Below, piece by piece: positions 4,058 to 41,626 of a stretch of DNA of 41,626 nucleotides. The translations under genes were made by a program, and so were the position numbers. The stretch comes from a virus. The first letter of the stretch is position 1, and the number at the start of each line of letters is the position of its first letter. Location: positions 1-41,626 of the IMG/VR virus record IMGVR_UViG_3300046459_000234; one strand, 5' to 3'. The notes under the pieces were generated by a model, which made no database searches, was not told the origin of the DNA, and was given only the letters and a program-made list of their open reading frames with translations.

Positions 4058-4443
4058 CAGATCACCCCCGGCAGCAGGCCGGCCCGTGTGAGCGCGCGGT
4101 GTGCGCGCGGGGCGAGGTCTACGTCGGCGGCGGCCTGGGGGTTGTCGCGGCGGTCTCCGAGGGATACGGGACCGATCGAGACGCTTCCCCACTTCCCGGC
4201 GGCGCCGGTGCCGTCGTCGCCCGTGGCGAGCTGGTACTCGACCTGGGCACACACGGCGTCGGCGAGCGCGCTCACGACGACCGGGTCAGTCGGCATGCCG
4301 GCGCTGTTCACCGCGTAGCAGGCGGTGAGTAGGGCGTCGTCGATGTCCTCGGACGCCCGCGCGAGCAGCCGCTCGGCGTCGGCCGGGGCCGGCTGGCCGG
4401 TCCACGCCGTGAACTGCTCGGGGGTGGCGTAGGAACGGCCCAC
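4054..4443 (-). CDS. Head-tail connector protein (gp6-like)
   Basis: 129 aa (MGRSYATPEQFTAWTG..AERLLARASEDIDDAL..), the typical N-terminus of gp6-like connectors. Confidence 0.75.
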   Translation of the reverse strand: MGRSYATPEQFTAWTGQPAPADAERLLARASEDIDDALLTACYAVNSAGMPTDPVVVSALADAVCAQVEYQLATGDDGTGAAGKWGSVSIGPVSLGDRRDNPQAAADVDLAPRAHRALTRAGLLPGVIW

Positions 4444-4446
4444 CGG

Positions 4447-4863
4447 TCACCCCTCCTTGCTGGTCTTCTCCGGGGTCGCCTTGGCCGCGGTGCGCGTGGT
4501 GCGCGGCTTGCGCTTCGGCGCCTCGGCCGGCTCGACCGGCGCAGGCTCGATGCCGGGCGCGACGGACTCGGGCCCGTGCGGGTTGACCTCGCCGGCCCCG
4601 GACGGCGGACGGTGGTCGCCCTCGCGGGGGTCGACCGCTCCATCGCGCAGCGCGGTACCGACCTGCTCGACCTCGACCTCGCGCGGGTCGACGGGCTCGG
4701 CCGGCTCGTCCGGCTCGGGCGCGGCCTGGTCGACGCCGTACCCGCGGCGCCGCGCGTACGCGATGATCGCCGGGTCGTTCGTCGTGGCCTTGCCGTTGCG
4801 GAACTTGAGGCCGGCCGGGCCGTCGCCCTCGAACCCTGGGACGGGACTGTGAAGGGTCGTCAT
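4447..4863 (-). CDS. Hypothetical head-associated protein
   Basis: 138 aa (MTTLHSPVPGFEGDGPAGLKFRNGKATTNDPAIIAYARRRGYGV...) with a Pro/Glu-rich tail. ATG at 4863 overlaps the capsid stop (TGATG). Confidence 0.6.
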   Translation of the reverse strand: MTTLHSPVPGFEGDGPAGLKFRNGKATTNDPAIIAYARRRGYGVDQAAPEPDEPAEPVDPREVEVEQVGTALRDGAVDPREGDHRPPSGAGEVNPHGPESVAPGIEPAPVEPAEAPKRKPRTTRTAAKATPEKTSKEG

Positions 4864-5828
4864 CAGCCGGCCACCTTCACGCCACGCAGAACGGCCGCGG
4901 CCTTGGTGGCCTTGAGGGCGACGCCCACCGGCCCCATTTCGACCTCGCCCGTCTTGACGGCGCCCGACGTGGTGAAGTCGGGGAGCCACTGACGGACCAG
5001 GTTCCCGCCCGTGGTGCTGATGCCGTGGAACCCGTCGACGCCGATCCGAACGGCGTAGATGTCCGTGGTTCCCGCGGTGGCGTCGGTCGGGATCACGGGG
5101 TCGTTGCTGCCGGCCTTGGCGCCGAGGTCGATCAGCGGCACGCCCCGCCACGTGGTGATCGTGCGGCCGAACGCGTCGAGGGTGCCCAGCTGCGAGACGA
5201 AATCGGCGATCGTCTCCAGTGCGGCGAGGGCGTCCGCGTTCATGAGCAGCGCGGTAGGCGAACCGTCCAGCTTCGCGTACAGCTTGCGAAGGTGCTTGAG
5301 GGCGGCGATGCCGCTCGCCTGGGAGTTGACGGCCGACCAGTCGTACCCGGCGGCGGTGCCGAGGGTCAGTTCGGTGCTCGACCCGGTGAGGGCCTTGTCG
5401 AGGCCGTCGAACGAGTCGGCATCGACCGCGGAGTCACCGTTGATCACGGCATCGGAAAACGTCGAGTTGGCGGCCTTGATCTTCTGCGTCATCTGGAGGC
5501 TGACCTCGTTGGACGCGGCCGGGCCGAGGTTCGCGAGGACGCGGTCGATCTGGAACGCGCCGCCCAGAACCTTGAGGTCCGTCGTGTACCGCTGGCGCGT
5601 GACCTCCTGCGGCGCGTACTCGGTGTTCAGCGCACGGAATCCGGCGGTGGGCTGAGTGATCAGCCGCGTGTACCCGTACGTGAGGGTCGCGCCCCCGCCG
5701 GCCGGGTTGACCACGTCGTCGAACACCATGTTGTCGAGCAGCCACGACGACTTGCGGAATTCGTCGATGACCATGAGGTCGATGTCGTCCTGCGTGTTGA
5801 GCTTTGCCTGTGCGAGGGTCACGGCCAT
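4863..5828 (-). CDS. Major capsid protein
   Basis: 321 aa (MAVTLAQAKLNTQDDIDLMVIDEFRKSSWLLDNMVFDD...). It follows the scaffold gene and has balanced composition. Confidence 0.85.
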   Translation of the reverse strand: MAVTLAQAKLNTQDDIDLMVIDEFRKSSWLLDNMVFDDVVNPAGGGATLTYGYTRLITQPTAGFRALNTEYAPQEVTRQRYTTDLKVLGGAFQIDRVLANLGPAASNEVSLQMTQKIKAANSTFSDAVINGDSAVDADSFDGLDKALTGSSTELTLGTAAGYDWSAVNSQASGIAALKHLRKLYAKLDGSPTALLMNADALAALETIADFVSQLGTLDAFGRTITTWRGVPLIDLGAKAGSNDPVIPTDATAGTTDIYAVRIGVDGFHGISTTGGNLVRQWLPDFTTSGAVKTGEVEMGPVGVALKATKAAAVLRGVKVAG

Positions 5829-24790: not shown

Positions 24791-25161
24791 CGGTGCAGCT
24801 CCTCGGGCATGGCCGGCTCGTCGAGGGCGAGGTCGCCCGTCGCGGCGTCGTAGGCGTGCGGGCGGGTCCAGTCGGCGGCGGGGAACGCCCGGCGGAGCAG
24901 GCCGAGGGCGGCGCGGTGCGCGGCGCGGTCCGCGGTGAGTGGCAGACCGAGGGCGTCGTCGAGGGCGACCCACATCGCGACGCGCTGCTCGCCGTCGCGG
25001 TCGGTCGTCACAGGGACGGTCCGCACGCGGGCGGTACCGGGTGCGATCTGGTCGAGCTGCCGGGCGATCACGCCCGTGCGGGCGAGACGCTTCCGGGCGG
25101 CGAGGGCACCCTCGACGGCCTCGGCGGCGCGAGGGCGGGCGGTACGCTGGGCGTTGTTCAC
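24787..25161 (-). CDS. Hypothetical protein
   Basis: 124 aa. GTG at 25161 follows GAGAGG. The Pro/Ser/Arg-rich upstream part of the track ORF was trimmed. Confidence 0.55.
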   Translation of the reverse strand: MNNAQRTARPRAAEAVEGALAARKRLARTGVIARQLDQIAPGTARVRTVPVTTDRDGEQRVAMWVALDDALGLPLTADRAAHRAALGLLRRAFPAADWTRPHAYDAATGDLALDEPAMPEELHR

Positions 25162-25228
25162 GATCGGTACCTCTCGGGGTTCGGTCGGGGAGGGCCGTCC
25201 GGGTGCATCCGGGCGGCCCTTCGTCGTG

Positions 25229-25432
25229 TCAGGCGGCGGCGCGGTCGGGGGCGGCCTGCTCGGCCTGCTCGGCGCGGTGCGCGCGCTCGATGCGCCGGAT
25301 GATGAGTTCGGCCTCGGGGTCGAGGCGGCCGGCGGCGCGGTCGCGGGCGATCCGGTCGAGGGCACGGTCGAGAACACGCCGCGCGTTGGCGAACGCGACC
25401 TCGCGCGGGATGACGGGCGCGGGGGCGCTCAT
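25229..25432 (-). CDS. Hypothetical small helical protein
   Basis: 67 aa. ATGA overlap with the Cro-like gene stop. Confidence 0.55.
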   Translation of the reverse strand: MSAPAPVIPREVAFANARRVLDRALDRIARDRAAGRLDPEAELIIRRIERAHRAEQAEQAAPDRAAA

Positions 25433-25656
25433 GCGGCGGCCTGATCAGTCGAGGGGCCGCGGAGTTTCAGCAGGCGAGAGGCGGGGATGCCGTATTCGTC
25501 CTGAACGGCGGCGGCCACACGGGCACTTGGGGCGGTCTTGCCCGTCCACAAACGCCATGCGGTCGCGGGGGCAACTTTCAGCCGTGCTGCGAGGTCTGTG
25601 TAATGCCGGTCGCCTTTGTCGGTGGCAACTGCCTGCAAGTGGGCACGGTCGTACAT
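25429..25656 (-). CDS. Cro-like HTH regulator
   Basis: 75 aa, MYDRAHLQAVATDKGDRHYTDLAARLKVAPATAWRLWTGK... ATG at 25656 follows AAAGGAAC. It is divergent from the repressor gene. Confidence 0.7.
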   Translation of the reverse strand: MYDRAHLQAVATDKGDRHYTDLAARLKVAPATAWRLWTGKTAPSARVAAAVQDEYGIPASRLLKLRGPSTDQAAA

Positions 25657-25673
25657 GGCCGTTCCTTTCTGAT

Positions 25674-25702
25674 CAGACAGAACGTCTGTCAGGACAGAAA
25701 GT
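25674..25702 (-). promoter_or_regulatory. Operator-like motif, copy 1 (CAGACAG-N5-CTGTC-N4-CAGAAAGT)
   Basis: cagacag aacgt ctgtc agga cagaaagt, 18 nt upstream of the cro-like ATG. It contains the perfect inverted repeat GACAGA-ACG-TCTGTC. A further GAAAGTTAG-N2-GACAG box lies at 25723-25738. Confidence 0.55.
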
Positions 25703-25770
25703 AACACCTATCTTTCAGGAGTGAAAGTTAGGGGACAGCGTTACGGCCTGTGACGGTGGGTGTTACGCCG

Positions 25771-25799
25771 TTGACAGGGGGGTACGTGCGGTACAGAAT
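25771..25799 (+). promoter_or_regulatory. Candidate rightward promoter for the repressor operon
   Basis: TTGACA (25771-25776), 17-nt spacer, CAGAAT (25794-25799). Confidence 0.45.
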
Positions 25800-25856
25800 C
25801 GGACGTACGTTCGACGCATTAACGCAGGTCACGGCCTACGTGCATGCGGTAAGGGG

Positions 25857-26378
25857 GTGAACAGGTGCAACGACGCGCCATGTCTGGAACGCCATGTATC
25901 GCGCGAGACAGCTACGCGCTACATTTCACCCATGAAAAACAGCAAGCACGGCGCGGCCGACCGTGCCGCGCAGTTCGCCGACTGGCTGACTCAGCAGATC
26001 AGCGCCCAGGGATACGACCTCTCGGGCCCGCGCAGCGGCGGCAAAAGCCGCTTCGCCGAAGATTCGGGCATTAGCCCGTCAACCGTCGGCCGACTCCTCG
26101 ACGGCAAGCGCGTAACCGACATGGACGTACTCGCGAGGCTCGCCGAAAAGCTGGGCGTGACCCTCGGAACGGTCCTCTTGCGCGCCGGCATCGTGAGCGA
26201 GGGCGACCTCGTCGCCATACAGGAGCCGGAAACGGGACCGCGCCGCATGACGCCGGCGCGAGCAGCCGAAGAACTCGGCATCACAGACCCCCACAAGCGG
26301 GCCGTCTTTGTCTCCATGACAGAGACCCTGCAACAGCCACCCCCCGACACAGGCGAGGCGAGACTCGCAGAGAACTAA
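25857..26378 (+). CDS. CI-like repressor (XRE-family HTH)
   Basis: HTH ..SRFAEDSGISPSTVGRLLDGKRVTDMDVLARLAEKLGV... The start is ambiguous: either GTG at 25857 or ATG at 25932 (MKNSKHG..). Confidence 0.75.
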   Translation: MNRCNDAPCLERHVSRETATRYISPMKNSKHGAADRAAQFADWLTQQISAQGYDLSGPRSGGKSRFAEDSGISPSTVGRLLDGKRVTDMDVLARLAEKLGVTLGTVLLRAGIVSEGDLVAIQEPETGPRRMTPARAAEELGITDPHKRAVFVSMTETLQQPPPDTGEARLAEN

Positions 26379-26395
26379 AACGCACGGAGGCACCG

Positions 26396-26818
26396 TTGAA
26401 CGGCCGCAAGATGTACGCCCCCACCGTGACGATCTTCGCAACAGGCATCACGTTGAGCCTGGTCGGGATCTTCCAGGATGACGGGGGCGATCTGTCGCGC
26501 GCCGGAATCTTGATCGCGTTCGCCAGCCTCCCCCCACTCTGCTACTGGCAGACGCAGCGCGCCCACGACGACGTAGAGAACCAGGTTGCCGACGCTCACG
26601 CCGCCGGCTACCGCCTCGGCCTCGAACACGTCGCTAAGGGCCTGCTCAAGAGGAACGCAGCACCGCCCGACGGCGGCGAGCACGTCGACCAGGTCGAGCA
26701 GTGCGCCGACCAGGCGACGCACCGCGCCGCCAACGGAGCGGCGGGCCCCGTTGTCCCTGACAACGTGCGCCCGCTGCGACTCGTACAGCCGGATCACGAC
26801 GAACGGAAGATCGTATGA
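26396..26818 (+). CDS. Two-TM membrane protein, translationally coupled to the integrase
   Basis: TM helices YAPTVTIFATGITLSLVGIF and AGILIAFASLPPLCYW. SD GGAGG. The stop overlaps the int ATG (ATGA). Third-position GC supports the plus frame over antisense ORF 26375-26836. Confidence 0.7.
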   Translation: MNGRKMYAPTVTIFATGITLSLVGIFQDDGGDLSRAGILIAFASLPPLCYWQTQRAHDDVENQVADAHAAGYRLGLEHVAKGLLKRNAAPPDGGEHVDQVEQCADQATHRAANGAAGPVVPDNVRPLRLVQPDHDERKIV

Positions 26819-28503
26819 CCCTTCCCGACATCCCATCCACGTTCCACGGCTCGCCGCACGCCGGCGAGCCGTGGATCGGCTATATCCGCGTGTCCACGTG
26901 GAAAGAGGAGAAGATCAGCCCCGAACTACAGCGGACCGCTATCGAGCAGTGGGCCGCGCGCACCGGGCGGCGCATCGTCGATTGGATCATCGACCTTGAC
27001 GAATCCGGGCGCCACTTCAAACGAAAGATCATGGGCGGCATCGAGCGCATTGAGCGTCGCGAGGTCCGAGGGATCGCCGTATGGAGGTACAGCAGGTTCG
27101 GGCGCAACCGGACCGGCAACGCGGCCAACCTCGCCCGCGTGGAGGCCGCCGGCGGCCTACTGGAGTCGGCGACGGAACCCGTCGATGCCTCGACCGCCAT
27201 CGGTCGGTTCGCCCGCGGTATGTACATGGAGTTCGCCGCATTCGAGAGCGACCGCGCCGGCGAGCAGTGGAAAGAGACACACGAGCACCGCCTCGCCGCC
27301 CAGCTGCCCGCCACCGGCCGCGGACGGTTCGGGTACATCTGGCACAGGCGAGCCGTCCCCGATCCCACCGCGCCGAACGGAATCCGGCTGCAACAGGAGC
27401 GGTACACGCTGCACCCCGACTACGCGAGCGTGGTCGAAGAACTCTACGAGCGGAAGATCGAGGAGTACGAAGGGTTCAACGCCCTTGTGCACTGGCTCAA
27501 CGAAGAGTTGGTCATCCCCACCACGCGCGGCAAGGCGTGGGGCGTGAGCACCGTCTCGCGGTACCTCGACTCAGGGTTCGCCGCCGGCCTGCTCCGCACA
27601 CACGACAAGACGTGCCCATGCGGGTACAGCAGCGGCAAGCGAAGCGGATGCCCCGACAACCGGTTCATCTATCTGCCCGGCGCACAGCCGCGGATCATCA
27701 CCCCCGACCAGTGGGAGGCGTACAAGGAACACCGGAAGATCACCAAGGCGACGCCGCCGCGGGCCCGGAAAGCGACCTACCCCCTTACCGGCCTGCTCCG
27801 GCATGGCTACTGCCGGCACCACATGAGCGCAGCGTCGTACACCTACAAGGGCGAGCAGATGCGCGGGCGAAACCTGGTGTGCAGCCGGAACAAGCACACG
27901 AGCAAGGTCGAGTGTCCGAAGGGGATCAACGTCCGGCGCGACTACGTCGAGAAGGAGGTCAAGAAGTGGCTTGAGCGCGAGGCCGCCCCCGGCATCGACG
28001 CCGCGCCGTCCGTGCCCGTGCAGCGCGCCGAGCCGACCGAGGACCCGCGCGCCCGCGCGCAGCGCGAGCGGGCCCGACTGCAAGTCGAGTTGAGCAAGGT
28101 CGAGGCCGCCCTCGACCGGTTGGTCATGGACAACGCCATGAACCCGCAGAAGTACCCGGCGGACAGCTTCGCGCGCGTGCGCGACCAGTTCGCCCACCAA
28201 AAGGGTTCGATCATGAAGGCCATGAACGAACTGGGCGAGGTCGAGGCGATGCCGACGCGCGAGGAGTACGCGCCCCTGATCGCGAACCTGATCGAGGCGT
28301 GGGACCTCTTGCAGCCGATCGAGAAGAACGCACTTCTTCGGCAGATCGTACGGCGCGTCGTGTGCCACGACATCCGTACGGAAGGGTCGCGCTGGATCGA
28401 GGTACGCGTCGAGGTTCACCCGGTGTACGAGCCGGACCCGTGGGCCCCGATCGTGGGCGAGGTCGTCGCCCGTAAGGACGGGCCGGCCGAACTGACCGGC
28501 TGA
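26815..28503 (+). CDS. int: Large serine recombinase (phage integrase)
   Basis: Catalytic N-terminus ..WIGYIRVSTWKEEKISPELQ.. and ..GIAVWRYSRFGRN... The recombinase domain, a Cys-rich zinc-ribbon region (..CPCGY..CRHHM..C..C..) and a coiled-coil give 562 aa. Confidence 0.92.
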   Translation: MTLPDIPSTFHGSPHAGEPWIGYIRVSTWKEEKISPELQRTAIEQWAARTGRRIVDWIIDLDESGRHFKRKIMGGIERIERREVRGIAVWRYSRFGRNRTGNAANLARVEAAGGLLESATEPVDASTAIGRFARGMYMEFAAFESDRAGEQWKETHEHRLAAQLPATGRGRFGYIWHRRAVPDPTAPNGIRLQQERYTLHPDYASVVEELYERKIEEYEGFNALVHWLNEELVIPTTRGKAWGVSTVSRYLDSGFAAGLLRTHDKTCPCGYSSGKRSGCPDNRFIYLPGAQPRIITPDQWEAYKEHRKITKATPPRARKATYPLTGLLRHGYCRHHMSAASYTYKGEQMRGRNLVCSRNKHTSKVECPKGINVRRDYVEKEVKKWLEREAAPGIDAAPSVPVQRAEPTEDPRARAQRERARLQVELSKVEAALDRLVMDNAMNPQKYPADSFARVRDQFAHQKGSIMKAMNELGEVEAMPTREEYAPLIANLIEAWDLLQPIEKNALLRQIVRRVVCHDIRTEGSRWIEVRVEVHPVYEPDPWAPIVGEVVARKDGPAELTG

Positions 28504-28520
28504 CCAGGCGTTTTTTATTT

Positions 28521-28564
28521 GCCCCTTTAGGCGCACAGTTCCACAACTGTGCGCCTAAAGGGGC
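28521..28564. repeat. Perfect 20-bp inverted repeat with 4-nt centre (candidate attP core and/or int terminator)
   Basis: gcccctttaggcgcacagtt-ccac-aactgtgcgcctaaaggggc. It lies 18 bp after the int stop, is preceded by ttttttattt, and is locally AT-rich. Confidence 0.9.
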
Positions 28565-28668
28565 ATCCGGGCGGCGAGGCCGCTTGACCTGCTCACCGCA
28601 CAGGCAACGGGGGAAAACCACGCACCGCGCCGCGTGCGGTGCCGCTCACGTCCTCGCGGGAGGCCGCC

Positions 28669-30330
28669 ATGTTTAGCACCATGCAGGACGCCCCCCTGAC
28701 TGTAAGCCGCATCCTGCGGCACGGCGTACGGGTCCACGGATCGTCGTTGGTCATCACCTGGACAGGGGGCGAAGCGCAACGGCGCACCTTCGCCGAGGTG
28801 GGCGCCCGCGCCGCGCAGCTTGCCCACGCGCTCAGCGAGTTGGGCGTCGGCGAGGGCGACGTCACGGGAACCCTGATGTGGAACAACTCTGAGCACGTGG
28901 AGGCGTACTTTGCCGTGCCGTCCATGGGCGCAGTTCTCCACACCCTGAATCTGCGGCTTCCGGCCGAACAACTGGGCTACATCGCGCGCCACGCCGGCGA
29001 CAAAGTGATCTTGGTCAACGGCTCGTTGGTCGGGCTGCTACTCCCCCTTCTTCCGAACCTGCCACGGCTTGAGCACGTAGTCGTGTCCGGCGCGATGGCG
29101 GACGACGCCCGCGCGGCACTGTCCGCGGCTTCCGGCGTGCAAGTGCACGAGTACGAGGAACTGATCGCCGGCCGTCCCACGGCCTACGACTGGCCGGAGC
29201 TGGACGAGCGACGGGCGGCCTCGCTCTGCTACACGTCCGGGACCACCGGCGACCCGAAGGGGGTCGCGTACTCGCATCGGTCCATCTATCTGCACTCCAT
29301 GCAAGTCAACATGGCCGAGTCCATGGGGCTGACGGACGCGGACCTTTCCCTTGTGATCGTCCCGCAGTTTCATTGCAACTCTTGGGGCCTGCCTCACGCA
29401 GCGTTCATGACCGGCGTGAACATGCTGATGCCGGATCGGTTCTTGCAGCCTGGCCCGATCGCCGAAATGATCGAGCGCGAGCGACCGACGCACGCCGCGG
29501 CCGTGCCCACCATTTGGCAAGGCTTGCTTGCCGAGCTGACCGCGAAACCGCGTGATGTCAGCACCCTGACTCAGGTGACGATCGGCGGCTCGGCCTGTCC
29601 CCCCGCCCTGATGAAGGCATTCGACGATCTCGGGATGCGGGTCTTTCATGCTTGGGGCATGACCGAAACGTCGCCCCTGGGCACGGTCGCGAGGCCGCCG
29701 GCCAAGGCGGTACCCGGCTCCGAGGAAGAGTTCGCCTACCGGCTCACTCAGGGCCGATTCCCGGCGGGCGTCGAGGGGCGCCTCATCGGTCCGGGCGGTG
29801 AAGAACTTCCGTGGGATGGTGAGTCAGCCGGCGAGTTGGAGGTGCGCGGGCCGTGGATCGCCGGCGCGTACTTCGGCGGGGTCGAGGGCGAGGCCACGCG
29901 TCCGGCCGACAAGTTCAGCGAGGACGGTTGGTTGAAGACTGGCGACGTAGGGACGATCAGCGCAGACGGATTCCTGACCCTCACGGACCGGGCAAAGGAC
30001 GTGATCAAGTCGGGCGGCGAGTGGATTTCCTCGGTCGAGCTTGAAAACGCCCTCATGTCCCACCCGGACGTTGCCGAGGCCGCCGTCGTGGCCGTCCCGG
30101 ATGAGAAGTGGGGAGAGCGGCCGTTGGCAACCGTGGTGCTCCGGGACGGCGCCGCGGCGGACTGGCCCGCCCTTCGTGAACACCTGGCCTCGAACGGCAT
30201 CGCACGATGGCAGCTGCCGGAACGGTGGGCCCTGGTGGCTGAGGTACCGAAAACGAGCGTGGGGAAGTTCGACAAGAAGGTGTTGCGCGGACGCTACGCG
30301 GACGGCGCGTTGAAGGTCGAGCAGGTCTGA
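28669..30330 (+). CDS. AMP-forming acyl-CoA ligase (long/medium-chain fatty-acid--CoA ligase family)
   Basis: ATG at 28669 lies 6 nt after GGGAGG. Motifs present: LCYTSGTTGDPKGV, AWGMTETS, GWLKTGD, IKSGGEWISS, PKTSVGKFDKK. 553 aa, apparently intact. Confidence 0.9.
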   Translation: MFSTMQDAPLTVSRILRHGVRVHGSSLVITWTGGEAQRRTFAEVGARAAQLAHALSELGVGEGDVTGTLMWNNSEHVEAYFAVPSMGAVLHTLNLRLPAEQLGYIARHAGDKVILVNGSLVGLLLPLLPNLPRLEHVVVSGAMADDARAALSAASGVQVHEYEELIAGRPTAYDWPELDERRAASLCYTSGTTGDPKGVAYSHRSIYLHSMQVNMAESMGLTDADLSLVIVPQFHCNSWGLPHAAFMTGVNMLMPDRFLQPGPIAEMIERERPTHAAAVPTIWQGLLAELTAKPRDVSTLTQVTIGGSACPPALMKAFDDLGMRVFHAWGMTETSPLGTVARPPAKAVPGSEEEFAYRLTQGRFPAGVEGRLIGPGGEELPWDGESAGELEVRGPWIAGAYFGGVEGEATRPADKFSEDGWLKTGDVGTISADGFLTLTDRAKDVIKSGGEWISSVELENALMSHPDVAEAAVVAVPDEKWGERPLATVVLRDGAAADWPALREHLASNGIARWQLPERWALVAEVPKTSVGKFDKKVLRGRYADGALKVEQV

Positions 30331-30346
30331 CGTTCTACGGGGAAAC

Positions 30347-30376
30347 GGCCCCGGTACCTCACCAGGTACCGGGGCC
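30347..30376 (+). terminator. Perfect 12-bp hairpin after the ligase gene
   Basis: ggccccggtacc-tcacca-ggtaccggggcc. Two more hairpins (30431-30456; 30464-30489) lie in the same convergent spacer. Confidence 0.75.
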
Positions 30377-30498
30377 GTCCCATGCGGCCCGCCGGCCCTG
30401 CTCGGGGGGGACCGGGCGCGGCGGGCCCTTCCCGCTACCGGTGTCGCGGTAGCGGGGGGCGAGGACGTACGCGCCGGCGAGCGTACGTCACGGGCGGT

Positions 30499-30807
30499 CT
30501 ACAGCAGCCGCGCGAGGCAATCCGGCATGAACAGGTCGCGCGCCCGATGCTGCGCCCACGCGACCGCGCAATCGTCGTCGCGTCGTCGCGCGTACTGGGG
30601 GCACAGCTCGCACCCGTCGAGGTGCTGGCCGGGCACGGCCTCGGGGTGCGCCTCGGCGATGTGCCGCGCCACCTGAAGTTGTTCCCAGAAACAGCCCTCG
30701 GGCTCGTCCCACGTCCGGGCGAGGCGCAGCAGCCATCGAACGCACTCCGGGCACGCCCACATGAAGGGCGGCGGTATGGGCCGGTCCGGGTGCGGTTCAT
30801 CGCACAT
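30499..30807 (-). CDS. Cys-rich small protein (cargo operon gene C)
   Basis: MCDEPHPDRPIPPPFMWACPECVRWLL..HLDGCELCPQYARRRDDDCAVAW... The start overlaps the gene B stop (TGATG; GTG at 30810 is an alternative start). Confidence 0.6.
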   Translation of the reverse strand: MCDEPHPDRPIPPPFMWACPECVRWLLRLARTWDEPEGCFWEQLQVARHIAEAHPEAVPGQHLDGCELCPQYARRRDDDCAVAWAQHRARDLFMPDCLARLL

Positions 30808-31292
30808 CACCGGTTCCGGATGGTCGTCGCGCCCATGTACGCGCGGCCGGTCGCGCAGATGCGCGCGAGGTAGTCCTCGACGGCGTCCGGGCCCGCGCCC
30901 GGCGGGATCGGGTCGAGGCCGATCGTCAGGCACACTTGCCCGCCGGCGTTCACGTGCGCGCGCCACTGCTCGCCGGGGGTCGGTAACCGCATGGTGTAGG
31001 CGGGGTGCCCGTAGTCGAGGGCGACGTACGGGCCGCGGAGTATCAGGCGGGCGCCGACGATCGGCACGCGCTCGGCGGCCGGCTGCAAGCGCATCGCGTC
31101 GACCATGCCCATGAGGCCGACCTCGACCGACTCGGCCGTCTCGTTCGCGCGCCGCGGGGGCGCGTGGCCGATCAGTACGTACGCGACGGGGACGGCGAGG
31201 GGGCCGGCCGCGTGCACCCACGTTGACACCGTGCAGCCCACGACGAAACCGGGGCCGGGCACGGCCCGGATGACGAGTTGGTTATCGGTCAC
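30807..31292 (-). CDS. Hypothetical protein (cargo operon gene B)
   Basis: 161 aa. GTG at 31292 lies 7 nt after GGAGG and overlaps the gene A stop (GTGA). I recognise no motif. Confidence 0.65.
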   Translation of the reverse strand: MTDNQLVIRAVPGPGFVVGCTVSTWVHAAGPLAVPVAYVLIGHAPPRRANETAESVEVGLMGMVDAMRLQPAAERVPIVGARLILRGPYVALDYGHPAYTMRLPTPGEQWRAHVNAGGQVCLTIGLDPIPPGAGPDAVEDYLARICATGRAYMGATTIRNR

Positions 31293-31723
31293 CTTGCTAC
31301 CTCCGCCCACACCTTTTTGCCGAACGGCCGGTCGTCCACGTCCCACCGCGCCGCGAGGGCGTCAACGATGTGCAGGCCGCGCCCGCGGGCCCGCTCTCCC
31401 GACTCGTTGCGGATGTACGGCCGGCGGCGCCGCGGGTCGTCGACCTCGACGCGCACGCGTTCGTCTGTGGTCAACACCGTGACGAGTACGGAGTCGCCCG
31501 GTTCGGTGCCGTACCGGTAGGCGTTCGTCACCAGTTCGGAGACGACGAGTAACACGTCGTCGAGGACGCCCTCGGGGAGGTCTGGCACGTCGTCGGTCAA
31601 CAGGCCGCGCACGTACGCGCGGGCGGCGTGCGCTGCCTCGGGGCCCGTGGGGAACATCGCCTGTGCAGGCGTCCCGCTGGGCGGGTCGCAACACGGAGTG
31701 GTATCCCGCCGTCGTTCGGTCAT
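31289..31723 (-). CDS. RsbW/SpoIIAB-type HATPase (anti-sigma-factor-like Ser kinase; cargo operon gene A)
   Basis: 144 aa starting at ATG 31723 (MTERRRD..). N-box LVVSELVTNAYRYG and G-box ERARGRGLHIVDALAARW. Confidence 0.8.
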   Translation of the reverse strand: MTERRRDTTPCCDPPSGTPAQAMFPTGPEAAHAARAYVRGLLTDDVPDLPEGVLDDVLLVVSELVTNAYRYGTEPGDSVLVTVLTTDERVRVEVDDPRRRRPYIRNESGERARGRGLHIVDALAARWDVDDRPFGKKVWAEVAR

Positions 31724-31782
31724 GCTTAACCCCTTCGGGCAGTCACGACATGCTGCCGCGGCTGCTTCACGAGCGAATGAGT

Positions 31783-31798
31783 TTGCCTGACTAGGCAA
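31783..31798. promoter_or_regulatory. Inverted repeat TTGCCT-N4-AGGCAA in the divergent cargo promoter region
   Basis: ttgcct gact aggcaa, in the middle of the 158-bp spacer between gene A and the XRE-TPR gene. Confidence 0.35.
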
Positions 31799-31881
31799 CA
31801 CGCGTAACGAAACCGGGGGTACCGTCGAGGGGGGTGTCGAAGGGTGTCGCTTTCGTCGCCCACGGTCGCGGAGGTGCGGGG

Positions 31882-33234
31882 ATGAATTCGCCAAACGATC
31901 AGCTTGCGTACTGGCTTGGGCGCTCAGCCATCAGCCGTAAGGATTTGGCGCGGCGCGTGCAATCAAAGGCGCGGGAGTGGGGGCAACCCAACGTTGCGCC
32001 CAACGCGACCCGTGTCCGGTGCTGGTTGGAAGGTGAGACGCCGCGGGCGCCGATCCCTGACATTCTCGCGGGGGTGTTCTCGGATCACTTCGGGTTCCGG
32101 GTCACGACGTACGACCTCGGCCTCGGCGACGGAAGTTCGGCCGACGCTGCCCTCGCCTATGACCCGTCGTTCGCCGTTACGGTGGAAGTCGTGGCCGACT
32201 TGGGGAGACAAGACGTGGACCGACGTAAGTTCCTTGCAGCCGCGCCGTTCGCGGCCGTGGCCGGTGTCGGTCCCTCGCGGGACTGGCTGTTGAACACGCT
32301 TGACCAGGAACCGGAACCGGGCCCGCGCGTACGTCTGGAAGACGTGCTAGCGGTGAAGAACATGTTCACCACCTTTCAGCGCATGGACATTTTCCAGGGC
32401 GGGGGGTCCGGGCGCCTGGTGCTCGCCGAGTACATGAACCAGCACGTCTATCCGCTGCTCCGTCGGTCGCATGACGACGACGTGCGGCGCGCGCTGTGCG
32501 AGGCGGCGGCGGAACAGACCTACCTACTCGGCTGGATGGCGTACGACAACGGCGAGGACGGGGTCGCGCAGCGCTACTTGATCCAGTCGCTACGCCTCGC
32601 GGAGGAGTCGCGTAACGCACCCCTCGGTGCCCACGTCCTCGCCGGCATGGCTGATCAAGCGACGCTGCTCGGCGATCCGGTCGAGGGCCGGCGCCTCGCG
32701 CAAGCGGGGCGACAGGGGTTGTCGAGGGTGGGGTCGGCGGCCTGCCTCGCCGACCTGTGGTGTCTGGAGGCGCGGGCGTTGGCTCTGCTCGGCGACAAGA
32801 AAGCGGCGGCGCGCGCGGTCGTGCAGTCGGAACGGGCGTACGAGCGGGTCGACCTCGACGCCGAACCGGACTGGGCAGAGTTCATCGATCCGGCCTACCT
32901 GCACGGGGAGCACGCGAACACGTTCCGCGACATGGGCGACGCGAAGTCGGCCGAGGAACACGCGCGCCGCTCGATCGATCACGCGCAGATGCAGCAACGG
33001 GCGCGGCGCGGTGCGATGTCGCATGCTGCGCTTGCTGTTTCTCACCTGCAACGGGATGACCTTGAGGCCGCGTACTCGGCTGGTCTGCGGACGCTGAAAC
33101 TATCCGGACAGGTGAAGTCGTCGCGGGCGGTCGAGGCCGTGCAGGATCTACAGCGGCGTATGGAGCCGTTCGGCGGGCATCGACTCGTCGCCGATTTCAA
33201 CGAGCGGGCCCGCGAGCTGGTCGCCGCGGCGTAG
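31882..33234 (+). CDS. XRE-type HTH + TPR-like transcriptional regulator
   Basis: ATG at 31882 lies 9 nt after GGAGG. N-terminus reads ..LAYWLGRSAISRKDLARRVQ..VRCWLEGETPRAPIPDIL... A Tat-like RRKFLAAAPFAAVAGVG linker follows, then a helical-repeat C-domain (..AAEQTYLLGWMAYDNGEDGVAQRYLIQSLRLAEE..). Confidence 0.8.
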   Translation: MNSPNDQLAYWLGRSAISRKDLARRVQSKAREWGQPNVAPNATRVRCWLEGETPRAPIPDILAGVFSDHFGFRVTTYDLGLGDGSSADAALAYDPSFAVTVEVVADLGRQDVDRRKFLAAAPFAAVAGVGPSRDWLLNTLDQEPEPGPRVRLEDVLAVKNMFTTFQRMDIFQGGGSGRLVLAEYMNQHVYPLLRRSHDDDVRRALCEAAAEQTYLLGWMAYDNGEDGVAQRYLIQSLRLAEESRNAPLGAHVLAGMADQATLLGDPVEGRRLAQAGRQGLSRVGSAACLADLWCLEARALALLGDKKAAARAVVQSERAYERVDLDAEPDWAEFIDPAYLHGEHANTFRDMGDAKSAEEHARRSIDHAQMQQRARRGAMSHAALAVSHLQRDDLEAAYSAGLRTLKLSGQVKSSRAVEAVQDLQRRMEPFGGHRLVADFNERARELVAAA

Positions 33235-33294: not shown

Positions 33295-33639
33295 TCATGC
33301 TCGGGTGGCGAAGGTCCAGAGGGACAGGGCGAGGCCGGCGAGGGCGACCAGGGCGGCCACGGACGGAAGGGGCCACCGGCCACGTTCGAGGGCGTCGGTG
33401 CGTGAGTCGTTGCGCTTCTGCCGTTCTGTCTCGCCCCGTTCGAGGGTGTCGAGGCGGGCGTCGTGGTTGTCGATGCGGCGGGCGTGTTCCTTGAGCGCTT
33501 CGTCTGTCTGGTCGTGGCGCTGAACGAGTAGCGCGAGGGCGCCGTCGGTGCGGGTGAACCCGACCTCGATCGTCCTCCGGATGCGTTCGAGTTCCAGCGC
33601 GACCGCGGCCGGATCGGACGGCGAGGGATGGGTCGTCAC
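33295..33639 (-). CDS. Tail-anchored coiled-coil membrane protein (lysis cassette accessory)
   Basis: 114 aa. Coiled-coil followed by a C-terminal TM helix (WPLPSVAALVALAGLALSLWTF). ATGA overlap with the holin stop. Confidence 0.65.
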   Translation of the reverse strand: MTTHPSPSDPAAVALELERIRRTIEVGFTRTDGALALLVQRHDQTDEALKEHARRIDNHDARLDTLERGETERQKRNDSRTDALERGRWPLPSVAALVALAGLALSLWTFATRA

Positions 33640-33872
33640 GGCGCGGTGGGCTCCTTGTCGTCAACCAGGCCGAGGCCGAACCGGTCGAGGATGGCCTCGA
33701 CGCTCGGGAGTGCCATCACGCGGGCGAGGCCGCCGGCGACGGCGAGGCCGCCGGCGACCCACGGCAGGGAGTCGGGCACGCCGGATGCGGCGACGATGCC
33801 GGGGAGCGCGACGGCGAACGCCACGGTGCCTTGCAGGACGGTGCGGATGCTGCGCTTGTTCTCGGGGGTCAT
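33636..33872 (-). CDS. Holin (two TM helices)
   Basis: 78 aa. TM helices VLQGTVAFAVALPGIVAA and LPWVAGGLAVAGGLARVMAL. It lies next to the endolysin gene. Confidence 0.7.
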   Translation of the reverse strand: MTPENKRSIRTVLQGTVAFAVALPGIVAASGVPDSLPWVAGGLAVAGGLARVMALPSVEAILDRFGLGLVDDKEPTAP

Positions 33873-41047: not shown

Positions 41048-41626
41048 TCACCCCCTTGCCTTCGCGAGCCATGCGAGGGCCTTTGCGTTGTCGTCGGGGG
41101 TGCCGTTTTCTGCGGCGTGCCAGTGCTCGACGTGCACTGTCGCGCCGGACGCCGAGGCGGCAAACGGGTTTCCGTACGCGCCCATGCCCGCGCCCGCGAG
41201 GGCGGGCGAGAGGCCCGGAACAGAGGGAGGGGTCACCAGGCTGGACATTGCGCGGTCTACGGCGCCGGCGCCGCCCTCGATGCCCTTGACCAGGCCGGCG
41301 GGAATCCAGCGGCCCACGTCGCGCGCCATGACCTTGGACGGCGACGCGATGCCGAGGGCGTCGGCGATCGGGCCCGGAATCATGTTCTTCGCGAAGCTGA
41401 TCAACTGCGACTTGAGCCAACTGCCCATGCTCTTTACGCCGTTGAGTAGGCCGCGAACGATGTCCTTGCCCTTGTCGACCAGCAGCGAGCCGAGGTTCCC
41501 GATCGCCGAGCCGATACGGCCGGGCAGGCCGCGGGCCCACGCGATCGCCTCGCCGGCCTTCGTGATGATCGTTTCTTTGAACCGGGACAGGGCCGACCGT
41601 GCGCGCTCCGCGAGCTGTCCCGCGAG
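41048..41626 (-). CDS. Tape measure protein, C-terminal part (continuation of 1-1777)
   Basis: ..AIAWARGLPGRIGSAIGNLGSLLVDKGKDIVRGLLNGVKSMGSWLKSQLISFAKNMIPGPIADALGI.. with stop TGA at 41048. The frame is continuous with 1-1777 through the 127-bp overlap. Confidence 0.85.
   Translation of the reverse strand, partial: LAGQLAERARSALSRFKETIITKAGEAIAWARGLPGRIGSAIGNLGSLLVDKGKDIVRGLLNGVKSMGSWLKSQLISFAKNMIPGPIADALGIASPSKVMARDVGRWIPAGLVKGIEGGAGAVDRAMSSLVTPPSVPGLSPALAGAGMGAYGNPFAASASGATVHVEHWHAAENGTPDDNAKALAWLAKARG
41500..41626. repeat. Right copy of exact 127-bp terminal direct repeat
   Basis: Identical to bases 1-127. Confidence 0.97.

Follow-up and report, generated by a model that had tools for sequence, protein, structure and literature searches.

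A phage-borne, regulator-swapped relative of the Streptomyces whiJ/bldB/abaA loci with a possible role in host development

Relationship to the whiJ/bldB/abaA loci

In Streptomyces, few regulatory gene sets are as expanded and as poorly understood as the whiJ/bldB/abaA loci. AbaA paralogues are small HATPase proteins that are encoded beside whiJ and bldB paralogues (PMC10294661, PMC4255298), and AbaA-like genes recur among the TTA-containing genes of the genus (PMC4255298). NsdA and WhiJ each function as a brake on development (PMC12243394, PMC4255298), and a 2013 review stated that nothing was known on the role of the anti-sigma-like component (PMC4255298). The window analysed in this study, that is, the whole stretch of 41,626 nucleotides covering positions 1 to 41,626 of the IMG/VR virus record IMGVR_UViG_3300046459_000234, contained a four-gene cassette related to these loci. 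The cassette consists of a gene for an NsdA-family regulator (R) and a divergent operon that encodes an AbaA-like HATPase (A), its partner protein (B), and an optional Cys/His-rich protein (C) (Table 1).

Similar to the described whiJ/bldB/abaA loci (SCO4542-4544 and the S. venezuelae sets), the cassette has an AbaA-like HATPase gene divergent from the gene of an XRE-family regulator, a TTA codon of the type that is frequent in the HATPase gene, and a distribution that is limited to Streptomycetaceae. It differs from them in that a single NsdA-family protein replaces WhiJ and the DUF397 protein, a Cys/His-rich protein has been added, and the locus is carried by a phage. Furthermore, the HATPase is always coupled to B, as a fourth component, whereas it is unmentioned in the cited accounts of the whiJ/bldB/abaA loci.

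The comparison was extended to 36 related loci from genomes, prophages, phages, and viral contigs, including some duplicate records of the same phage, which were scored for the proteins of the window and for a WhiJ-like/DUF397 pair. A was located directly upstream of B in essentially all of them. The GTG start of B overlaps the TGA stop of A in the window, and an overlap of the stop of A with the start of B (RTGA, 4 nt) was present in at least 20 of 26 loci, distant loci among them. A and B were fused in one polypeptide in S. acidiscabies (16 contigs), S. sodiiphilus, and Streptomyces sp. NPDC059629. C was encoded in only about 12 of the 36 loci, and its place was elsewhere taken by a second B paralogue (L024) or by nothing. 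As judged from this comparison, A-B is the invariant core of the locus and C is optional cargo. The junction overlaps also agree with the sequence-only reading of this stretch, which had proposed a translationally coupled A-B(-C) operon divergent from the regulator.

The regulator slot was occupied by an NsdA-type gene in about 13 loci, including the window, phages Raleigh, Tubberson, and SV1, and L015, which combined an NsdA-type gene and A-B with no phage marker within 7 kb. A WhiJ-like gene with a DUF397 gene filled the slot in about 16 loci. These include Darolandstone (gp25-28), which belongs to the same genus as Raleigh, and Picard (gp24-27); the Darolandstone regulator matches the family of Sco1979, a WhiJ-paralogue. 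DUF397 and HTH_31/DUF5753 genes adjoin A-B in L003 (a prophage), L023, and L025, and L004, with a different XRE-type regulator, represents a third regulator type. Related phages swap the type of regulator, with the rest of the genome unchanged. Chromosomal copies of A-B had housekeeping neighbours, for example, enolase, divIC, and ppx, and did not lie in defence islands, an association for which a neighbourhood survey had been suggested.

The sequence-only reading had also stated that the usual partners of this kinase class are missing and that the architecture is therefore different, possibly a novel system. The first statement is correct for the window, in which tblastn detected neither a WhiJ-like gene (HTH_31 and DUF5753) nor DUF397, but the same A-B pair is accompanied by both in about half of the loci. 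The second statement does not hold, because the sister phages Darolandstone and Picard as well as chromosomal sites carry A-B with WhiJ-like and DUF397 genes. Since the same A-B pair occurs with WhiJ and DUF397 elsewhere and the published AbaA loci are alike, the cassette is, by homology and gene order, a regulator-swapped member of the Streptomyces whiJ/bldB/abaA locus family. The occurrence of NsdA-type and WhiJ+BldB-type regulators before the same operon suggests that both classes perform equivalent jobs.

The cassette R-A-B-C is phage-borne and lies inside a complete temperate phage genome. The ends of the window are identical over 127 bp (1-127 and 41500-41626), and this exact overlap indicates that a complete phage genome was assembled as a circle, with a unique length of 41,499 bp. 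Across the head, tail, lysis, integrase, and repressor genes, the window shows collinearity with Raleigh and Darolandstone, two Streptomyces phages of the genus Raleighvirus, and this together with the circular assembly makes the cassette part of a complete temperate phage genome. It is located between the holins (33295-33872) and attP/integrase, beside the repressor. An earlier description of the four genes as accessory cargo was thus confirmed, the slot being that between the lysis cassette and attP/integrase of a temperate phage. Orthologous cassettes with 80-82% nucleotide identity occupy the same slot in Raleigh (gp25-28), Tubberson (25-28), SoJo (25-28), ToastyFinz, and SV1 (gp24-26); in comparison with Raleigh, Tubberson, and SV1, the window alone adds an acyl-CoA ligase between attP and C. 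The database labels of these phage orthologues read only HTH protein, transcriptional regulator, histidine kinase, or hypothetical protein. The PHROGs families 12354, phrog_12213, and phrog_10886 contain A, B, and R, respectively. Homologues of B were present in 16 phage records, which represent about 10 distinct phages, every one a Streptomyces phage, and on seven IMG/VR contigs. The cassette was already present in sequenced phages and in PHROGs families. It is a variant within a known family of Streptomyces gene clusters and no new kind of system.

Table 1. Positions of the cassette genes and associated elements in the window.
Feature	Position	Strand	Remark
R, NsdA-family regulator with TPR-like repeats	31882..33234	+	450 aa from ATG 31882; longest open reading frame from GTG 31834
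Divergent control region, 158 bp	31724..31881		palindrome and direct repeat; conservation from 10-locus alignment
A, AbaA-like RsbW/SpoIIAB-type HATPase, 144 aa	31289..31723	-	TTA at codon 58
B, 161-aa obligate partner of A, new family with unmatched predicted fold	30807..31292	-	TTA at codon 103
C, 102-aa Cys/His-rich protein, optional	30499..30807	-	TGATG junction with B
IR2, GC-rich hairpin, probable terminator, conserved cassette boundary	30344..30377		downstream of C

Proteins of the cassette and their control

A matched HATPase_c_2 (E 5.9e-14) and HATPase_c (1.9e-06) in Pfam and, weakly, the RsbA/SpoIIAB models of NCBIfam. The boundaries, length, and motifs (SELVTNAYRYG and GRGLHIVDAL) that had been read from the letters of this gene were reproduced, and the HATPase_c_2 match agrees with its assignment to the RsbW/SpoIIAB class. 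Among solved structures, the best relative of A was the RsbW-like kinase domain of Rv1364c, a multidomain protein (E 0.0014), followed by SpoIIAB. In an alignment to Rv1364c and SpoIIAB, the N box (SELVTNA) was intact and a G2-like GRGRGL was present, and the G1 position read DDPRR, not DxGxG. A may act by target binding rather than by phosphorylation.

The A-B pair resembles the RsbW-RsbV and SpoIIAB-SpoIIAA modules, in which a small GHKL anti-sigma-type ATPase is likewise co-translated with a dedicated small partner. Rv1364c carries a kinase domain and then a STAS partner in one chain, and the A-B fusions mirror this ATPase-partner arrangement in the protein that is also the best match of A in the Protein Data Bank (PDB). 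In contrast to RsbW/SpoIIAB modules, B is not a STAS protein and is encoded downstream rather than upstream of the ATPase, the G1 box of A is degenerate, and the cassette contains no sigma factor gene. In a related prophage (L024), an ECF-like sigma gene was located about 1 kb downstream.

No known domain was found in B by Pfam or NCBIfam, as expected from the earlier remark that it has no recognisable motif, and its coordinates, its length of 161 aa, and its overlap with A were also borne out. There were 81 close homologues of B, all in Streptomyces, and a profile search against 1.84 billion representatives yielded 138 clusters (50% clustering) from Streptomyces, Streptantibioticus, and Kitasatospora. 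On the basis of these searches, the B family is small and restricted to Streptomycetaceae; its broad alignment is too divergent to serve as a probe for genome scans. The AlphaFold2 model of B was a confident alpha/beta structure (predicted local distance difference test, pLDDT, 89; predicted template-modelling score, pTM, 0.85). A Foldseek comparison of this model with the PDB gave a best E of 0.27 and template-modelling (TM) scores of at most 0.23, with nothing at E<=0.001, and the B family profile found no homologue among PDB sequences. The remote-homology and structure check that had been suggested for B and C therefore gave a confident model with no PDB match for the former and a poor model for the latter. 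IosA, a 15-kDa sporulation inhibitor with a novel fold that occupies the abaA slot in S. venezuelae, is similar to distant B-family members in size and isoelectric point (pI). Its termini as given by published primers (MNEENREV... and ...FSGGS) were unlike those of every B-family member seen, a comparison that covers the termini only. In several Streptomyces strains (proteins P0112 and P0193), a B domain was also observed in fusion with DUF6415, for which the NCBI name is "natural product biosynthesis protein".

C had 28 homologues, all in Streptomyces, and no known domain by Pfam or NCBIfam. Its coordinates, its length of 102 aa, the TGATG junction, and the two CxxC pairs in the segments WACPEC and DGCELCP were as previously read. 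Nine residues were invariant (C19, C22, C39, H49, H54, H62, C66, C69, and H87), and three of these form an invariant HxxxCxxC motif (H62-x3-C66-x2-C69). C likely binds metal, as indicated by these conserved positions. The AlphaFold2 model was poor (pLDDT 50). An identity of C as a ZAS anti-sigma domain was rejected, since no zf-HC2 match was obtained in Pfam at E<=10 and hhalign against RsrA aligned 11 columns, covering the motif only, with a probability of 0.3%; an identity as DUF6415 was rejected as well.

R gave a full-length match to the NCBIfam model NsdA_fam_reg (NF053720; 415.7 bits with a cutoff of 75, profile positions 2-432 of 432). It remained far below the equivalog cutoffs of NsdA (NF050130, 195.7 versus 830) and NsdB (NF050135, 147.7 versus 700), and R is therefore a paralogue. 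Differentiation and antibiotic production are under negative control by NsdA, whose DNA binding was shown by chromatin immunoprecipitation and electrophoretic mobility shift assays (PMC12243394). R shares the family with NsdA and NsdB but differs from them in being encoded by a phage and in its pairing with an abaA-like operon. Alignment of 10 orthologous loci fixed the start of R at ATG 31882, which is preceded by GGAGG, within a longest open reading frame of 31834-33234; this conserved ATG confirmed the proposed 450-aa regulator and 158-bp spacer. The proposed domain content was less secure, because the TPR matches were weak (Pfam, E 0.03) and an XRE helix-turn-helix (HTH) is plausible only by family.

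The spacer was strongly conserved among NsdA-type loci. It contains the palindrome TTGCCTGACTAGGCAA at 31783-31798, which had been noted before as TTGCCT-N4-AGGCAA. Its position was correct, and the complete palindrome was kept in just 5 of the 10 orthologous NsdA-type spacers, whereas the right half-site AGGCAACAC was kept in all 10. A direct repeat, GGGTGTCG-N2-GGGTGTCG, at 31832-31849 was also kept in 10 of 10. Both the palindrome and the direct repeat occur once in the phage genome, and their confinement to this spacer suggests that control is local, with no hint of further phage genes regulated by R. WhiJ9 binds direct repeats within its own divergent spacer (PMC10294661). A scan of the high-GC cassette region found no sigma-70 consensus promoter and no T-tract terminator. 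IR2 was not called by this terminator scan, and it was kept in Raleigh, Tubberson, Darolandstone, and prophage loci.

The TTA triplets at codon 58 of A and codon 103 of B were the sole TTA codons inside phage genes (38 non-overlapping open reading frames, approximately 10,100 codons); a third one falls within a 5' extension of the open reading frame of A for which there is no support. No tRNA genes were found in the window. The confinement of TTA to A and B and the lack of a phage tRNA suggest that translation of both genes should depend on the host bldA tRNA and hence on late growth. The TTA in A was kept in 10 NsdA-type loci (duplicate records of the same phage included), and at least one TTA in A or B was present in about 17 of 20 holin-adjacent loci versus 2 of 11 chromosomal loci.

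Proposed role in host development and alternative explanations

Our preferred interpretation, to which we give about an even chance of being right, is that the cassette is a phage-borne, regulator-swapped whiJ/bldB/abaA member with a bldA-gated, R-controlled A-B complex that acts on host development. R would bind the conserved spacer repeats, regulate its own expression, and control the promoter of A-B-C, similar to WhiJ9 at iosA. The host bldA tRNA would be required to translate A and B, and the proteins would thus appear only late in growth, when they would form a complex in which the anti-sigma-like A has B as its antagonist, substrate, or sensor partner. A sigma factor or a developmental regulator of the host would be the target of this complex, and sporulation and antibiotic production would be delayed or rewired in lysogens. 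We infer that, in its likeliest role, the cassette would interfere in a bldA-gated manner with the development or secondary metabolism of the lysogenic host.

This interpretation is consistent with what has been reported for the chromosomal paralogues and for Streptomyces phages. Overexpression of abaA6 in S. venezuelae results in a white, non-sporulating phenotype, and AbaA paralogues are derepressed in a bldB mutant (PMC10294661). Replication of Streptomyces phages is restricted to growing mycelium, and infection alters sporulation (PMC10276819). Lysogenic conversion of development and anti-phage defence had both been put forward by the sequence-only reading; the former gained from the abaA-family context, the TTA codons, and the location of chromosomal copies among housekeeping genes, whereas the latter lost ground as the defence-system search was blank.

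Several points weigh against an action on host development. In S. venezuelae, four of the five abaA paralogues had no overexpression phenotype (PMC10294661). The DDPRR sequence in the G1 box of A makes kinase activity doubtful. B was considered as a STAS domain and this was rejected, with no Pfam match and no STAS protein among the 50 best-scoring Foldseek matches listed. No residue was invariant across the broad B family to mark a phospho-acceptor or catalytic site, and this favours a role in binding or regulation over one in catalysis. In R, Pfam detected no HTH even at E<=10. Finally, the slot beside the immunity/integration region is equally typical of prophage defence genes.

A bolder form of the proposal, which we regard as tentative and on balance doubtful, is that the bldA(TTA)-gated AbaA-type ATPase and the new-fold protein B constitute an unrecognised partner-switching pair that holds back sporulation of the lysogen or reads its developmental clock, and that the regulator is exchanged to match the host. 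If this were true, B would be the missing handle on the job of dozens of chromosomal AbaA paralogues. As a conserved and sometimes fused partner of one AbaA subclass, B is a concrete candidate for an interaction. Isolated phages carry and exchange loci of the whiJ/bldB/abaA type, which links phage biology to host development, and the proposals are directly testable because Raleigh, SV1, Darolandstone, and their hosts are in culture.

The cassette might instead serve the phage itself, reading the developmental state of the host through bldA-dependent translation and passing it on to the lysis-lysogeny decision, induction, or the timing of lysis, with the host phenotype not altered. The restriction of TTA to A and B and its enrichment in phage copies would suit such a sensor, as would the location of the cassette next to the lysis and immunity modules, and UUA has been proposed as a host life-cycle sensor in Streptomyces phage Hau3 (PMC10732093). 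However, the candidate operator motifs are confined, within the phage genome, to the spacer of the cassette, chromosomal loci use the same A-B pair in the absence of a phage, and related phages exchange the regulator type while the remaining genome is unchanged. We therefore consider a life-cycle sensor unlikely.

Anti-phage defence or superinfection exclusion, in which R or B senses a phage and A-B(-C) shuts down host transcription or growth (abortive infection), appears decidedly improbable. The cassette does occupy a moron slot between the lysis genes and attP, by the repressor and integrase, with its own divergent promoter region, and the neighbouring slot shows a fast turnover (C, a B paralogue, an acyl-CoA ligase, or a tRNA synthetase). 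However, A, B, C, R, and the acyl-CoA ligase had no match in PADLOC-DB 2.0 (E<=0.1), no nuclease, protease, NADase, or membrane effector was found, and the chromosomal homologues are in WhiJ/BldB contexts among housekeeping genes. Gating by TTA would also postpone the response to late growth, whereas phages replicate in young mycelium (PMC10276819). A toxin-antitoxin or addiction module that stabilises the prophage is the least credible explanation and very improbable: the cassette is small, autonomous, and mobile between replicons, and XRE-DUF397 pairs were predicted to be type II toxin-antitoxin systems (PMC2701414), but experiments on such pairs in S. coelicolor indicate regulators of antibiotic production and differentiation (PMC6262351, PMC10364602), DUF397 is absent from the window by tblastn, and no toxin-like fold was found.

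The acyl-CoA ligase and the attP-proximal slot

The gene on the other side of the cassette (28639-30330) had been described as a ligase in the sequence-only reading. A ligase gene does flank the cassette at this position, and it encodes an intact long-chain acyl-CoA ligase (PRK06187, 650.8 bits), not a DNA ligase. In comparison with Raleigh and Darolandstone, it lies next to attP on an insertion of 1,777 bp. An inverted repeat at 28520-28565, just past the integrase gene, is homologous to the experimentally defined attP of SV1, and the SV1 attB lies within the CoA ligase gene SCO4383 (PMC4068962). In prophage L013, the host ligase homologue, which is 68% identical to that of the window, is cut at codon 245 and joined at CAGTTCCAC to the P' arm of this attP type. 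The phage thus carries a complete homologue of the gene into which its group integrates.

At the codons equivalent to attB (29364-29375), the phage copy reads CAGTTTCAT, with CAG TTT CAT, and two host copies read TTC CAC. The phage site has two synonymous changes to rarer codons, with a chance of about 0.05 from the gene's own usage, and these changes would block attP x attB recombination within the phage. It is suggestive only, but the phage ligase could be an attB-silenced replacement of the gene that is disrupted on integration. The region of the attP-like inverted repeat, the ligase, and IR2 spans 28504-30377 of the window. Prophages L006 (8005-8256) and L013 (7690-8418) interrupt acyl-CoA ligase homologues at about codon 83 and at codon 245, respectively, and this target gene family may thus contain more than one att site.

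The attP-proximal slot appeared as a cargo hot spot in the window (28569-30806), L035 (Picard; 4114-5585), and L024 (6001-6465). It contained the ligase and C in the window, C alone in others, a second B paralogue in L024, and a tRNA synthetase with an RNA-binding protein in Picard. The Picard tRNA synthetase was compared with the one beside the chromosomal A-B pair L004, and the two are unrelated. The G+C content of window positions 25000-33000, which include the lysogeny and cargo genes, was 0.665-0.714 and thus lower than in most of the structural and replication arms (mostly 0.69-0.77). In L019 (250-1917 and 6537-7474), 4.6 kb separate a chromosomal WhiJ/DUF397/A-B locus from an intact gene for an acyl-CoA ligase that is 70% identical to the phage copy; this proximity may be a coincidence or a hint at the origin of the phage cargo.

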